Shown in pieces: positions 29,801 through 35,800 of a stretch of 64,000 nt of DNA (positions are counted from its first letter, which is position 1; the number at the start of each line of letters is the position of its first letter). The DNA comes from Nitrospinaceae bacterium (GTDB taxonomy: Bacteria > Nitrospinota > Nitrospinia > Nitrospinales > VA-1). Made by a program: the position numbers. The stretch spans positions 11,436 through 75,435 of the forward strand of contig JBHHVU010000011.1 of assembly GCA_046754465.1 (NCBI GenBank), given 5' to 3'.

Positions 29801-32800
29801 CTTTAAAGAGCCGTAAAAATCACGGACCATTTCATTTTCATACGTGACTGCGGCGGGGGAAGGCTTTTGCGCGGTTTCCTTCTTTTCCATCGGATTGGTT
29901 TCGGTGGAAGGATCCGCGGGAGGGCGCAAGGAGGAGATGTCGACCTTGGCTTTCAGCAGTTTTTTTTCATATTTTTTCAAAAATGTTCCCACCGCTTCCA
30001 AAACTTCGGGGGAATCGGAAATTTTGAGCAGCGAGGCATAAATGTCCGCCGCATATATCCATTCGCCGGCGGATTCATAGGTTTTGGCCAGGGAAAGATT
30101 GACCCCCAACCGGTGCTCTTCGTTCCCGGGAAATTCACGCATTAAGGACCGGCGGTACACCTGCCACGCGGCCTTGTAATTGAATGACAGAAAATAAGCG
30201 TCGCCCAACAATTTTTCTGCCTCCGACAAATCCCTTTGAACATTTTCGTGGAAGGGGCTATCGGGGTAGGATTTGAACAAGGTCAACCTGAGTTTTATGG
30301 ATCGCCGGAGAAGTTCAATGGCCGGCCGATACTGTTTCTTTTCGATTTCCACTAACGCGATTTCGTTCAACGCCAGGGCCAGGTGGTGCAGGCGGAAATC
30401 CTCCAGAATAAAATTCCCTATTATTTTGGTTTCCAAATATCGGACGGCATTCTGAAAATCACTTTTTTGAAAATACAAATACCCGATCGCCAAAACCAGC
30501 AGGTTCTTCTTTTCCCGTGACCGGATTTTCCTCTCGGCTTTTTTGTAATCCAGGAGGATGGATGGAATTTCCTCCTTATCAAGATGACCCAGGTCAACGA
30601 TGATCCGCTGCCGGGGAAACAGGTCCGTGGGAAAGGGTTCCCCGGTATTGAAAATATCCAGCCGCGTGGCAAAAACCGTGGACCCCTGCAGGAAAAAAAA
30701 CAGGATAAAGAAGGCCAATAAGCGAAAAGGGAAAGTCATGGCAATCGTGGAAAGGGATTTCTTGAATCAAGAGGGTTTTCCGGCACAATGAAGCTTTCCC
30801 ATTATACCTTTTCCTGAACCGTTTGCCGGAAAGGACTTGGAATTTGATACAGGATCAACTTAAATAAAAGGACCAGCTAGGACTTTTTGTCGTAGGAGCG
30901 GGAAAGATGAACCACATAATCTTCACCGTCATCCACAAGCGATGAGTGCGATGAGTCAGGCGGATACTCGGACCGCTGAACCGAGGAAGGCGGGGATTCC
31001 AACCCCAAATCCTGCTGACCGGAAACCGTGTCCACAAAAACTTCTTCCCCCACATTCCATTTCTTTTTATCCGAGGGATCTTTTTCCAGCGCGATCACAA
31101 TAATCTCATGGGTTTGGGAATTCCATTTGGGATGGGGCTCCCGATTATTGATTTGACGACGGTCTCTCACCACTTGCTGTTTAACGGGTTTCTTGGGGCC
31201 GTGCCGGCGTTCCTGGTTCCGCTTATCCCCGTTTCGTAAAATAATGCCCTTCCGTTTTTGCAGGTGCTTACGAAAATCGGCTTGCTTCTCGCTCCGGGAT
31301 ATCGGAAACGAACCGGAAACCGAAACCACTTTTTCCACGTATTTTTCAGAATCTGAAGCCTTATTTCTGTCGATACCGGCAACTAACATGACGGACTCCT
31401 CAGCCAACAAAAATTTTTTCGATCTAATTTTACAGGATATCTTTTTATCGGCAAGGCAAAAGAAAACCTTGAGTCCTTTTTTCCATCAAACCCCAAAAAA
31501 TCAATTGTTTTCCTTTAAATAATTGAAAAATATAAGCTTAAAGGATGAAGTAAATTGGCCGGGGTCCCGGGACAGTAAGCCTTGAATCTCCCCCAGCGTC
31601 CAATACCGCCCTTCACTGATCTCCAAGGGATTAATAGTAATGGTTTTGGAGGTGGTGCAGGAAAAAACAGCAACATGCTCCCAGCAGGTTTCCCGACATG
31701 CGCGGAAGGTTATCAGAGGATGCAAATCGCCGGCGATGCCAAGCTCCTCCTTGAGTTCACGGTGGGCGGCGGCGGCATAATCCTCTCCCGAATCCACATG
31801 GCCGGCGGATGAGGTATCCCATAAACCTGGGTTTTCATCCTTGGCCGGGGCTCTTTTCTGGAGAAAAAGGTCCCCTCGGGGATTGAAAACCATGATGTGC
31901 ACGGAACGATGCAAAAGGCCCTTTGCGTGAATTTCCGCCCGGCTGGCCCGGCCCACCACTTTGTCATCGGCATCCACGATGTCATACACTTCGTCGCTTT
32001 CGTTCATGGTCCGGCAGGAAATTAATCCGTATCAGGTTAAGGCGGGAGGCATGGGCAAGGAAATGGCTGCGTAGAGAAACCCCATCCCCGCGACCCTCAA
32101 GCCGTATTTCTCAAAACCCGCAAGTAGCCGAGTTTTTTGGGAAGATCCTTTTCCTCGCAGTAATTGTATCTAGCCAGGATTTTGACGTCGTTCAAGACCC
32201 TCTTACTGCCTTCAAAAATCACTTTTTGACAACCCTTGTCCGAGATGGCTCCACCGGCTTGTAACAGGCTCATGACCGATTTGGCGTTGTATTTTTCTCC
32301 ATCGACTATCAGAAAAAGATCTTCACCATGTTCCCTGGCAATCAGGGAAATATAAGTACATGGCCGGGCATGGAACCCAAGGGGTTGGGGAATGGGCACT
32401 TCGATTCGCGTGGTTTTTACGAATTGACCCAGCAGGCTGTCGGCGAGCTTGCTTCCTTCCCGGATAAAATGGAAACTGTAAAAAAAACCGAAATTGATGA
32501 TTTGGCGCAGCAATTCGCCCTTATCCACCAACTCTGAAATTTTGGATTTACATTCTCCTCGGCGGATTTCATCCTCGTGCCGTTCGTAAAAATGGCACAA
32601 CCAGAGCTCCGTTTCCAGAAGGTGAAGCGAAATGGAGACGTGTCCGCGCAGATTCTTGAAGTCCGGATGCTCCTGCTCCAGGTGGGTATTATGGATGTAG
32701 GTGTCATAATCTGACTGCACACTGTGGACCAGTTCCTTGAACATCCGCGATCTCTTTTCGTCGATCTTTCTGGGAATCAGTTTTTTCAGCGCTTCCAGAT

Positions 32801-35800
32801 CCTCAGTCGGTTTGATCTTGATTTTGTCCATCATTCCCGAAACTTTTTGTACTTTTTCACACAGGTCGATGATCCTTTCTTCAATATCCTTGACCTGATC
32901 CTCGGAGATATTCCGCGGCAGACGCTTGTTGGATTTAATATCCGAAAATTCATGGGGGGGAAGCAGTTCCGTTGGAATGGCCAGGCCATTGGCCCTCCCG
33001 GCGCAAAGGACTTCCTGATAAATACTAAACAGGGACCGGTTTAAAAAACTCAGGGCCTTCTGGGCATCGGCGCAAAATTGCTCCCCGATATCCTTGACCT
33101 CGCGAATATTATAATAAGGAAATCGCTCTAACAGGTGCTTGATAAAAAATGCGGAAAGTCCCAAGTTACGAATACACGCCACATATTCGGTGAAAAAATT
33201 CCATCTACGGTTTTCTCGGGCGCCATATTCATCCAAAAAACATTCAAAAATTTCCGCTTCCTGGATCAGGTTGGAATAAAATTTCCTGGAAATTTTCCCG
33301 TTATTTTCAAACCGCGCGGCGAAGGAATTATAAATCTTGAAAAAAAACGTGGAGGACTCCTGAACCAGCGGAAGAAATTCTTCTTCTGAAATGATTTTAA
33401 CGAGAGGTACGGGTTCCATAAAACTCTCCAGTCATCGGGCTCCGGGGGATCCTGGGCCGAAAAACACAATTCTTTCTTATCAAGGATTGTACCACCAAAT
33501 AGAGGGGATTTGAATGGCAAGGCCCCGGGGGCGCTTTTCCCCTTGCGGTCAATTGACCAGCATGCCGGAAAAAGCCCGGGACGGAAGATACTTCTGCCAA
33601 ATTTCCAAGTAGGATTTAGGACCCGAGGGAACACTGAATTGCAGGAACATGAATTCGGGTTTGGAAGGGGTATTGATCAATCGCATCCCGGTCTCCTTGA
33701 GGGTTTGATTGCCCTTTTTCAAATTACAAGGTTTGCAGGCCACTACCACATTGGTCCAGTTGGTTTGCCCCCCGCGGGATTTGGGGCGCACATGATCAAC
33801 GGTGAGGATATGATTGGAAACTCCGCAATACTGGCAGGTATATTTATCTCGCCGCAAAATATTTTTTTTGCTGAAAGCGACCCCTTTTTTACGATTCCGC
33901 CTCACCATTTTCAATACCCGGATGACGGCAGGGAGCTGAAAAGTCAGGGAGGGGGAACGCACCATGAATCCGTCGCTTTCCAGGTTTTCCGCGCGGCCGT
34001 TCAATACCATGATAATGGCGCGTTTGGCGGTGCAGAATTGCAGGGGTTCATAGGAATAATTGAGAACCAGAATTTTTATGGAATCCAACATAAGGCGGCC
34101 ACTCATCCCGGTGGTTCTGTTCGGAAAACTGTTCCGTTTCCGGATCACTCCCCCGATAAAAGGCTGGAAACGGGAAATTCACCATTCTCGAAAAGTACTT
34201 CGCCTAATTATTTAAACCAAAATATCAGAATGGTTTGAACGAGTTTACAATCTACCTGTTCCCGCTGTCAATAGAATCCATGGGACGCGGCCCGGCGGCA
34301 CGGGCGCCCGCGCCAGACCCGCTGAAAGAATTTTCCGGAATCACCCGGCCCCACCCCGTTCGGGATCAAAAAATATTTCCCCTTCCCAAACGCCCGGCGG
34401 GATCCAAAGTGGCTTTGATCTTTTTTAAATCCTCCAGTGCCGGGCCGCCCACCATCTTGGCGAAAAAGGGCTTTTTCAATTTTCCAACCCCGTGTTCGGC
34501 GGATATGGTTCCGTTCCAACGCAAAATACCTTCGACGAGCACCTCGTAGGTGGCTTGGGCGCGGTCCATTTCGCTTTTATCCGGCAGAAGGTTGATGTGC
34601 AAATGATTGTCCCCAAGATGGCCGAACATGACATAATCCAATCCGCTTTTGGCGAGTTCGCGCCGGTAAAAATGCATCATCTCCATAAAATATTGATCCG
34701 GCGCCGCCATGTCGGTGCCAATTTTAACCCGGCCCAGGCGGCTGTTTTCCTCGTTCACCATCACGGGAATATCGTGGCGGAAATCGTGGAACTTCTGAAC
34801 ATCCCGGGCAGTCCGGGCGAACCAGGAGTCATCCAGTAAAACCTCTTCCTTGCTGAGAAACTCGTACCAGGCCTCCAGGACCGGGTCGTAATCGCCCTGG
34901 CGAGCAACGTCCTGTTCAAAAAACAGGGCGGCCCGGGCGCGGCCGGGAATGTTGCCGTGTTTGACCTTCAGCCTTTGCAGGGAATAACGGTCAAAATATT
35001 CCAGGGAACAGGGAGCCAGGGGTGAAGTCCTCAAAGCCCGGAGCTTTTCCACCAAACGCCAGCAATCCTCTTCCTCACTGAAAAAAAGAATGCCGCTGAT
35101 GAAGTCCGCGGGACAGGGAAGCAGTTTCAAGCGGATTCGCGTGAACACTCCCAGGGTGCCGTCGGAACCGATGAAAAGGTCCAGCCAGTCCATTCCCGGC
35201 CGCACAAAATAGCCGGCAGCATTTTTACATTTGGGGCTGGTATACCGTATCTTGGGGAACGGAATTCGGGTGCCATCGTCCAGCGCCAGCGGGACGTTGA
35301 TGGTATTACCCCTGGACAGGGTCACTTGTTTCCCATCCGCCAAAACGATATCGGCCTCCAACACATAATCCCGGGTGGCCCCCAGTTTATAGCTTCGGGA
35401 TCCGGAGGCGTTGGTGGCCACCGTCCCGCCGATGGATGCGAGGGTTTCCGTAGGATTGGGAGGATAAAAATAAGGGGTGCCCAACAGGTGGCTCTGCAAA
35501 TCCGCCAGAGAGACGGCCGGGCCGACGTCGATCCAGGCGTCGGTGATTGGACCGAGGGATTGGAACCGTTCCAGGGAAATCACCACCCCTGAATTGGGAA
35601 TCCGGGAGGCGGTCAACCCTGTTCCTGCGCCCGCGATGGTGACGGGCCGGTCATTCGTTTTCAGGAAAGCAGCCAGTTCCCCGGCATTTTCGGGAATGAG
35701 GACCTCATCGGCATGGCCACCGGAATAATTGGAGGCGTCTTTCAGGTAAGGAGCAACGGTCTGGGGATCGCTTTTTCGTATCATCATCCTGCGCATGTTT

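Follow-up and report, generated by a model that had tools for sequence, protein, structure and literature searches.

The PTS is among the best-studied bacterial signalling systems. Its carriers HPr and NPr (PtsH and PtsO; PF00381, TIGR01003) are stand-alone proteins of about 85-90 amino acids, and the gene for NPr (PtsO) lies within or beside the rpoN-hpf-ptsN cluster. In the multidomain proteins FPr/FruB, DhaM and the MTPs, HPr is joined to EIIA-Fru, EIIA-Man or EI (PMC2405797). The fusion protein that we describe here is like these in that it links HPr covalently to another domain, presumably for phosphoryl exchange between the two, and we take these proteins as a working analogy for its mechanism, but its partner is a helical domain that has no relative in Pfam, NCBIfam or PDB. 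In contrast to ordinary HPr, it has 440 amino acids, with an N-terminal domain of 335 residues and a tail of 15 residues, and it is encoded on contig C11 of its genome, whereas the rpoN-hpf-ptsN cluster is on contig C43. It belongs to a "long HPr" family whose larger domain, despite the attention given to the PTS, is not represented by any Pfam or NCBIfam model; no structure of the family has been solved, and our literature search found no paper on it.

The gene occupies positions 32097..33419 on the minus strand of the window, i.e. the whole 64,000-nucleotide stretch of DNA that was analysed, and consists of 440 codons, beginning with ATG, and a stop codon (32097..32099). Judging by the ORF list and the translation, these coordinates, which were given by the first-pass annotation, are already in window numbering with no offset to subtract. 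The start M-E-P-K-S-L is common to the full-length homologues, which have about 440 amino acids. Also on the minus strand, the N-terminal all-helical domain (residues 1-335, 32415..33419) comprises helical bundle 1 (residues 12-143, 32991..33386) with conserved E59, D63, A67, N70 and H95, a linker (residues 144-178, 32886..32990) with conserved L167-P168, and helical bundle 2 (residues 179-333, 32421..32885) with E221, H232-x2-Q-S-x2-D239-T, E248, R258, H266-x2-E269 and H276-F-Y-E-R280-H281. The HPr phosphocarrier domain follows on the same strand (residues 336-425, 32145..32414), and in it lie the codons of His350 (32370..32372, coordinates checked), the predicted phosphorylation site and equivalent of HPr His15, and of Arg352 (32364..32366), the equivalent of HPr Arg17. 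After N-Y-C-E422 comes a conserved C-terminal tail (residues 426-440, with P427, Y432 and L433; 32100..32144, minus strand). A consensus scan of the 129-nt gap that precedes the gene found a weak promoter-like site on the minus strand, TTCAAA-17-TACAAT with TG (33486..33514); the region has 6 such sites and shuffled versions have 3.8 +/- 1.8, a difference that alone is not significant.

Pfam PTS-HPr matches residues 340-389 of the fusion with 25.1 bits, above the gathering score of 23, and TIGR01003 matches residues 340-387 (E = 9.9e-8) with 31.8 bits, below its curated cut-off of 47.9. The domain has the open-faced beta-sandwich fold of HPr, and the translation contains both G348-F-H350-A-R352-P and N-A-K-S381-V-M-S-L at checked positions. 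At E <= 1, PTS-HPr matches 86 of 95 family members. Across 121 diverse members, with 22-54% identity to the query, H350 and R352 are the sole invariant columns, and the active-site His and Arg are kept in 125 and 126, respectively, of 128 representatives; in Nitrospinota family f5 the motif reads H-A-K-P, i.e. Lys takes the place of Arg352. As no other column is invariant, phosphoryl chemistry at His350 is likely to be the core of the family, which, to judge from its sequences, almost certainly carries a PTS phosphoryl signal. The domain is divergent, being missed by Pfam at E <= 0.01 in family f5 (0 of 4 genomes) and in three of ten non-Nitrospinota genomes (G120, G124 and G127), and its fit to EIIA-Ntr might therefore be gone. 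The first-pass annotation had also seen a regulatory serine motif here; K-S381-V-M, the counterpart of the Ser46 motif of HPr, is present, but regulation by Ser-P is unsupported, since HPr kinase (PF07475) has no credible match in this genome (best E 0.39, 11.3 bits). Ser381 is kept in just 90 of the 121 members. In the same members the tail region is conserved at E422 (109), P427 (111), Y432 (110) and L433 (112); the deep-alignment model predicts a helix at 432-439, and in the class of about 520 amino acids the tail is kept as GYGED..LP..LSYLR.

Residues 1-335 had been reported to match no family, and our searches of Pfam, NCBIfam and PDB agree, with no Pfam or NCBIfam match and no PDB sequence relative found; in a Pfam vote of the 95 members every family except PTS-HPr was matched by two members at most. 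The domain nonetheless has residues that are conserved across phyla, the near-invariant Glu, Asp, Asn, His and Arg positions being E59, D63, N70, H95, E221, H232, D239, R258, H266, H276, R280 and H281. Among the 121 members, bundle 2 keeps D239, H276 and R280 in 119 each, E221 in 118, R258 in 115 and H281 in 114, and L167 of the linker is conserved in at least 90%. Since these residues are spaced i, i+3/4 and i+7 on helices 45-64, 74-102, 221-241 and 253-281, they fall on single helix faces, and they are probably all parts of one site that lies between the bundles. Coevolution likewise tends to place these four helices against each other: in uncontrolled ranks among all pairs, 95-259 is fifth and 95-266 seventh, and 58-269, 64-274, 82-277 and 240-277 are inside the top 55. 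Between the domains, the best pair (66-360) scores no higher than the maximum of a shuffle within subfamilies (1.271 against 1.272), and only the bulk is enriched, with 31 observed pairs above the shuffle's 10th value. The deep-alignment model of the whole fusion (pLDDT 96.0, pTM 0.91, no segment below 50) predicts a single compact unit in which the N-terminal domain is joined rigidly to the HPr domain and the tail; the linker, at pLDDT 45-64 in the shallow model, rises to 89-96, and the DSSP helices of bundle 2 are 179-198, 221-241, 253-281 and 300-333.

Known helical domains were considered as relatives, and no relationship to CHAD, to the N-terminal domain of EI or to Hpt is supported. CHAD (PF05235), to which the first-pass annotation had pointed through structure 6qva, shares with the N-terminal domain a description as a pair of helical bundles in which His and Arg are conserved. 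Foldseek did retrieve 6qva and 3e0s with the first model, at a probability of 0.87-0.91, but with TM scores of only 0.25-0.36 (TMq 0.25-0.26, TMt 0.34-0.36), and with the better, second model both were outside the top 50. Pfam has no CHAD match in this genome at E <= 10 and none among the 95 members at E <= 1, CHAD hits no fusion gene at E <= 1e-5 in 120 genomes (98 with the fusion), and hhalign of the N-terminal domain against the CHAD profile gives a probability of 1.2%, so that the hint is not upheld. The N-terminal domain of EI (PEP-utilisers_N, PF05524) is also a helical bundle, on which HPr docks beside a phospho-His site; against a profile of 23 Nitrospinota sequences of this domain the hhalign probability is 0.2%, and Pfam gives no such hit on the fusion. 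Hpt and CheA P1 domains (PF01627) carry an exposed phospho-accepting His on their second helix, and helix 45-64 of the fusion is without His. DhaL/Dak2 (PF02734) is an ADP-binding helical barrel, and it is not among the Pfam results for the fusion or for the 95-member vote.

According to the first-pass annotation the fusion is the only HPr gene of a genome that has EI and EIIA-Ntr and no sugar permease, and this picture holds. The assembly (97.12% complete, 115 contigs) has exactly one PF00381 match at E <= 10, the fusion. EI (595 amino acids, with CGE and the TSH motif of His188) and EIIA-Ntr (154 amino acids, with AIPH) are adjacent on C43 in a cluster lptCAB-rpoN-hpf-ptsN-ptsI, where the gap between ptsN and ptsI is only 84 nt, and both keep their catalytic residues. 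All 23 EI sequences sampled from Nitrospinota retain TSH, and all 24 sampled relatives of this EIIA-Ntr retain AIPH (25 of 25 sequences with our own). Above threshold we found no PTS_EIIC, EII-Sor, EIIA-man, HPr kinase or RapZ match, which for permeases means the families PTS_EIIC and EII-Sor. With a sole HPr-domain gene, any relay from EI to EIIA-Ntr is without an alternative carrier; the statement that it "must" use the fusion goes further, and is an inference.

Nitrospinota are the main marine nitrite oxidisers, and they provide a natural experiment in which ptsH is gone and the fusion, EI and EIIA-Ntr are retained. Of 120 Nitrospinota genomes, 98 match the N-terminal domain profile, i.e. 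97 of the 119 others, the same count that had been reported before. Any HPr match at all was obtained in 92 of the 120, and in 87 of these the fusion gives the only match. EI is present in 56 and EIIA-Ntr in all of the 57 high-quality genomes, and this near-universality, together with the kept catalytic His, argues from gene content that the PTS relay is still under selection. Three of the 57 have no N-terminal domain match, so either the fusion may be dispensable there or those assemblies may be incomplete. Five genomes of family f9 have the fusion plus a canonical ptsH (encoding a stand-alone HPr of 91 amino acids) adjoining ptsI, and the cluster can be followed from hpf-ptsN-EIIAMan-ptsH-ptsI in f9 through hpf-ptsN-EIIAMan-ptsI in f5 to hpf-ptsN-ptsI in our genome. 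This shows that in most Nitrospinota ptsH was lost, with the fusion retained, from an ancestral ptsN-EIIAMan-ptsH-ptsI cluster. With ptsH deleted, EI would have no way to reach EIIA-Ntr except through the HPr domain of the fusion. The fusion would then be a carrier that serves two purposes, unless the nitrogen PTS of Nitrospinota departs from the textbook.

That the architecture extends beyond Nitrospinota had been suspected, and it does so much more widely than was thought: the N-terminal domain profile alone retrieves 431 protein clusters (at 50% identity) at E <= 1e-3, and for one subclass alone the species genomes of Planctomycetota, Spirochaetota and Competibacteraceae yield at least 587 relatives. 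In ten of ten tested genomes of other phyla a stand-alone HPr (74-107 bits) and EI occur beside the fusion. An invention of Nitrospinota that replaced NPr is therefore rejected, the family being wide and canonical HPr standing alongside in these ten and in the five f9 genomes. This coexistence with canonical HPr and EI indicates that the fusion has a conserved job of its own, and, on the genomes compared, what is peculiar about the Nitrospinota case is the loss of ptsH and not the fusion itself.

We give a probability of about 0.5 to the reading that helical domain, HPr and tail together make a dedicated, separate PTS branch rather than a general carrier, which here is also the sole route from EI to EIIA-Ntr. 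In such a branch, EI charged by PEP would phosphorylate His350 of the HPr domain, the N-terminal domain would then read or use the phosphoryl state of His350 to give a dedicated PTS output, and, ptsH having been lost here as in most Nitrospinota, the HPr domain would also bridge EI and EIIA-Ntr. One may also consider a plain substitute for NPr between EI and EIIA-Ntr, with the N-terminal part as a passive scaffold or localisation tag. Although this would suit a sole HPr, in our own genome and in those 87, with EI and EIIA-Ntr intact, we regard it as very unlikely: canonical HPr coexists with the fusion outside Nitrospinota and in f9, the fusion gene is outside the rpoN/ptsN cluster, and a passive tag would not need some twelve polar residues that are near-invariant across phyla. 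It is at least as hard to believe in an input module, in which the N-terminal domain takes the phosphoryl group for His350 from polyphosphate or ATP instead of EI, or drains the relay as a phosphohistidine phosphatase. His and Arg are abundant in the domain, and the first model brought up CHAD structures, but the CHAD relationship is unsupported, and as EI is present in all ten fusion-bearing genomes tested outside Nitrospinota, no genome was found that needs another phosphoryl donor. A metal or redox sensor, where a His/Glu/Asp di-metal centre of ferritin or hemerythrin type would gate access to the HPr domain, seems to us similarly improbable.

Across phyla, the neighbours of the fusion gene include no conserved gene that would name the output of the dedicated branch. 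NUDIX is directly downstream of the fusion in 58 of 80 Nitrospinales loci, HAD and EEP occur in 27 and 10 of 80 loci of the class of about 520 amino acids, and Metallophos_2 in 42 of 80 loci of the Planctomycetota class of about 440 amino acids, where the gene is convergent, not co-directional. A protein of 689 amino acids (P0166) has the N-terminal domain, HPr and Metallophos_2 in one chain, and is a single fused example. That a phosphohydrolase of some superfamily lies near the fusion in each lineage would fit a PTS-dependent kinase in the style of DhaM-DhaL, in which a small molecule or nucleotide held in the site between the bundles is phosphorylated by the tethered P~His350 and the nearby phosphohydrolases reset the product; the conserved Asp, Glu and Asn with the His and Arg set would also suit metal-phosphate chemistry, and P0166 would join the parts physically. 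However, the theme of hydrolase neighbours is post hoc, it covers four superfamilies that are common and unrelated to each other, its Metallophos_2 case is convergent and the fused case stands alone, and neither a nucleotide-binding motif nor a known kinase fold was found in the fusion, so that we consider such a kinase unlikely. Rather less likely still is a new phosphoryl-acceptor or catalytic module fed by the tethered HPr, which would turn a PEP/pyruvate signal into a phosphorylated small molecule or into a phospho-His of the N-terminal domain (H276/H281 with R280), with the NUDIX, HAD, EEP or Metallophos neighbours resetting it. If this is true, several hundred bacterial species would have a signalling output that has gone unrecognised, and in Nitrospinota it would be the sole surviving PTS trunk. 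A member of the family is present in Engelhardtia mirabilis Pla133, a planctomycete that is in culture and whose genome is complete, which makes the question open to direct test.

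The gene at 32097..33419 (minus strand) is an open reading frame of 440 codons with an ATG start, whose product joins two parts: residues 1-335 (the N-domain, comprising helical bundles 1 and 2), which have no match in either Pfam or NCBIfam, and an HPr domain at residues 336-425. The latter is recognized by the Pfam PTS-HPr model over residues 340-389 (25.1 bits, cut-off 23), and by the NCBIfam HPr subfamily model TIGR01003 over residues 340-387 (E 9.9e-8), where its 31.8 bits remain below the cut-off of 47.9. It carries the motifs P-L-G-F-H350-A-R352-P and Y-N-A-K-S381-V-M-S-L, whose codon positions we checked. 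When compared by hhalign with stand-alone HPr of Nitrospinota, the HPr domain of the fusion gave a probability of 92.9% (E 3.6e-7), and this comparison was the positive control of our profile tests. All factual items of the first-pass annotation were reproduced, including its claim that no other HPr exists in the genome: in this assembly (97.12% complete, 115 contigs) PF00381 has one match at E<=10, namely the fusion gene.

The other PTS genes of this genome lie on contig C43 (L008, G000:C43:6000-24000), in the order lptC-lptA-lptB-rpoN-hpf-ptsN-ptsI-metK, where ptsN (154 aa) and ptsI (595 aa) are separated by 84 nt. The ptsI product, EI, is without a GAF domain and has the motifs GGKTSH(188)VG and CGE, and the ptsN product, EIIA-Ntr, keeps AIPH and matches solved PtsN structures (2a0j, E 8.5e-22). 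No credible match was obtained in this genome for HPr kinase (best E 0.39) or for EIIA-Man (E 0.93), and neither RapZ nor PTS_EIIC and EII-Sor, the two families with which permeases were sought, were found in it or in five of its relatives.

We surveyed 120 Nitrospinota genomes, 57 of them of high quality, and observed the N-domain in 98 (54 of high quality), EI in 107 (56), EIIA-Ntr in 108 (57) and PF00381 in 92 (51). The fusion is the sole HPr match of 87 of these 92 genomes. The frames of these 87 fusions are about 436-534 aa long, apart from eight shorter ones (126-403 aa), seven of which adjoin an N-domain match on the same contig, while in the eighth (genome G104) both pieces are found at contig ends. 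A second HPr match is present in five genomes, all of family f9; it is a 91-aa stand-alone HPr (74-86 bits) that immediately precedes ptsI, and the cluster of these genomes has the order hpf-ptsN-EIIAMan(138 aa)-ptsH-ptsI (L249, G116:C141). In family f5 it reads hpf-ptsN-EIIAMan(137 aa)-ptsI, without ptsH (L263, G002:C6), and the genome of the window, which has lost ptsH, retains hpf-ptsN-ptsI. The simplest reading of these gene orders would be that an ancestral rpoN-linked cluster lost first ptsH and then EIIA-Man, in a stepwise manner, with the fusion being kept throughout. Since the catalytic His is retained in all 23 sampled EI sequences and in all 25 EIIA-Ntr sequences (24 sampled relatives and the window's genome), the EI/EIIA-Ntr relay is arguably still in use in Nitrospinota. 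The f5 fusion, undetected by Pfam at E<=0.01, also retains its His, within an H-A-K-P motif (L274-L276) in which Lys replaces the usual active-site Arg, and the same replacement is seen in the stand-alone HPr of f9 (L249-L251, L254).

The fusion belongs to a broad family. A word-indexed search retrieved 408 relatives, the best 120 of which are 54-69% identical to it, 404-464 aa long and, where their sources give a name, called Nitrospinota HPr-family or hypothetical protein. In an exhaustive search with the N-domain profile, 431 clusters of 50% identity passed E<=1e-3, and 174 of them also passed E<=1e-30; other source names of family members are Deltaproteobacteria, Desulfobacteraceae and Ratteibacteria MAGs. 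Members of about 430-460 aa have the architecture of the window's fusion, and those of about 505-540 aa (the ~520-aa class) have an insertion of about 85 residues within the HPr domain and retain the C-terminal tail GYGED..LP..LSYLR. Scans over one genome per species, whose three result sets may overlap, gave 98 relatives when the Nitrospinota alignment was the query, at least 587 with the ~520-aa class (Spirochaetota, Planctomycetota, Competibacteraceae and others among the matches listed) and 346 with a Planctomycetota-type ~440-aa class, which includes the cultured Engelhardtia mirabilis Pla133. The caveat of the first-pass annotation that the architecture may extend beyond Nitrospinota was thus borne out by relatives in Planctomycetota, Spirochaetota and Competibacteraceae. 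Two single clusters are longer: P0166 (689 aa) adds a C-terminal Metallophos_2 domain to the N-domain and HPr, and P0253 (759 aa) an N-terminal TIR domain, each being available as protein sequence only and possibly an artefact of gene calling. A search for still longer fused forms, over proteins of 969-2765 aa, gave none at E<=1e-10, which is weak evidence. The parts seen of a 2008 survey of PTS phosphoryl-transfer proteins describe HPr fusions solely with IIA-Man, IIA-Fru, IIA-Glc and EI domains (PMC2405797), and full-text literature searches, judged by titles and abstract openings, returned nothing on a helical N-domain joined to HPr.

The N-domain itself resembles no family that we tried. 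A profile built from 16 N-domain sequences, taken from the window and the loci (A2), found no relative among PDB sequences, its top hit (E 0.046) being a de novo designed protein. In a permissive Pfam scan (E<=1) of 95 family members PTS-HPr was detected in 86, and any other family in two members at most. A structure search of the ESM Atlas returned clusters of the family itself, the remaining rows having TM <= 0.33. An earlier fold hint had pointed to CHAD, and it found no support in further tests: the CHAD Pfam model matched nothing in the window's genome at E<=10 and no fusion gene in the 120 Nitrospinota genomes, hhalign gave a probability of 1.2% against a CHAD profile built from homologues of the single Nitrospinota CHAD protein, and CHAD disappeared from the Foldseek top 50 once a better model of the whole fusion (deep alignment, pLDDT 96, pTM 0.91) was used as the query. 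That single CHAD protein is encoded on a 1.8-kb contig (L273, G028:C478:1-1811) in one of the 120 genomes; its nearest relatives are labelled Pseudomonadota or Gammaproteobacteria by their sources, and the contig may be a binning contaminant. Likewise not supported were kinship with the N-terminal domain of EI (hhalign 0.2% against a profile of 23 sequences), an internal duplication relating bundle 1 to bundle 2 (1.6%) and kinship with Hpt, for which the profile test was negative.

Across 121 members with 22-54% identity to the query, only the columns of His350 and Arg352, the predicted HPr active site, are invariant. In a set of 128 representatives, all 400 aa or longer, His350 is present in 125, Arg352 in 126 and Pro353 in 123, compared with just 93 for Ser381, the position of the regulatory-serine motif. 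Many N-domain residues are nearly as well conserved (counts out of 121): E59 112, D63 116, A67 117, N70 116 and H95 103, followed by E221 118, H232 107, D239 119, E248 111, R258 115, H266 106, H276 119, E279 108, R280 119 and H281 114; in the C-terminal tail these are E422 109, P427 111, Y432 110 and L433 112. Judging by their spacing, the conserved N-domain residues occupy single faces of helices 45-64, 74-102, 221-241 and 253-281. We also carried out a mean-field coevolution analysis of 338 sequences (effective number about 219), with a shuffle control that applies to inter-domain pairs only. The top pairs within the N-domain include 95-259 (rank 5), 95-266 (rank 7), 103-259, 82-277, 58-269, 64-274 and 240-277, and these couple helices of bundle 1 to helices of bundle 2 at sites of conserved residues; pairs 119-310 and 122-306 link helix 109-143 to the last helix of the N-domain. 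Because coevolving pairs connect both bundles near conserved residues, the data suggest that the two bundles share a single site between them and are not independent of each other. Between the N-domain and HPr, the best observed pair (66-360, 1.271) equals the maximum obtained when HPr halves were shuffled inside 50%-identity groups (1.272), and 31 observed pairs exceed the tenth value of the shuffle, so that some bulk signal appears to be present, with no single contact to be trusted.

One could argue that the fusion is a plain substitute for NPr. We examined ten fusion-bearing genomes from other phyla, five with the ~520-aa class (Spirochaetaceae, Phycisphaerales, Anaerohalosphaeraceae, Competibacteraceae and one unclassified) and five with the Planctomycetota ~440-aa class, E. 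mirabilis among them, and all ten contain a canonical HPr (74-107 bits) as well as one to three EI genes. This coexistence indicates, at the level of gene content, that the family is a paralogue with a role of its own and not an HPr substitute, and makes the plain-substitute explanation distinctly unlikely. In the reading we prefer, EI would phosphorylate His350, the conserved inter-bundle site of the N-domain would read or use the phosphoryl group of His350, and in the window's genome the HPr domain of the fusion would additionally serve EIIA-Ntr; we give this whole package a probability of about 0.5. The fusion might instead use the phosphoryl group in the manner of a kinase, though this is rather doubtful. 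Other roles might be assigned to the N-domain, either as an input or phosphatase module or as a metal sensor, and we view each of these two as very improbable.

The genes around the fusion differ from lineage to lineage, and no neighbour is conserved across phyla. FAD-oxidase and HNH precede the fusion in Nitrospinales, and NUDIX, CvpA, class IV aminotransferase, CoaE and FliL follow it, in this order; among 80 loci, 64 retain HNH, 58 NUDIX, 56 FAD-oxidase and 56 the aminotransferase. The window's NUDIX hydrolase (31501..32007, minus strand, 168 aa) lies 89 nt downstream of the fusion on the same strand. In NCBIfam it scores best as YfcD-like, at 88 bits, and as IPP-isomerase-like, at 76.5 bits, without reaching either cut-off. 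Directly upstream is an HNH-domain protein (33549..34148, minus strand, 199 aa), the HNH part of which is IscB-like at 70 bits, far below the cut-off of 175, a likeness at the level of the domain only. The 129-nt gap upstream of the fusion gene contains a promoter-like site, and a scan against shuffles gave no enrichment. The Nitrospinales neighbours do not occur in the deeper lineages of Nitrospinota; there the gene immediately downstream of the fusion encodes an M20 peptidase, and an aminotransferase or a chorismate-binding enzyme comes next.

In the ~520-aa class of Planctomycetota the order is LysR, HAD, a LolA-like gene, fusion, flavodoxin and FabA; a query from this class found no LolA-like gene in the window's genome. 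For the Planctomycetota ~440-aa class, 59 of 80 loci show a sigma-70-family gene upstream in divergent orientation, and 42 of 80 a Metallophos_2 gene downstream in convergent orientation; E. mirabilis Pla133, whose genome is complete (NZ_CP036287.1), has both neighbours around its fusion (L222, 7001-8311). A recurring theme is a phosphohydrolase near the fusion, of a superfamily that varies (NUDIX, HAD, EEP, Metallophos_2), to which the single Metallophos_2 fusion may be added; having been noticed post hoc, this proximity is a lead only. Finally, the CoaE and class IV aminotransferase reading frames of the window (25982..26779 and 26625..27482, both minus strand) overlap by 155 nt, and since the CoaE Pfam match begins only at residue 69, the true start of the listed CoaE frame probably lies further downstream.
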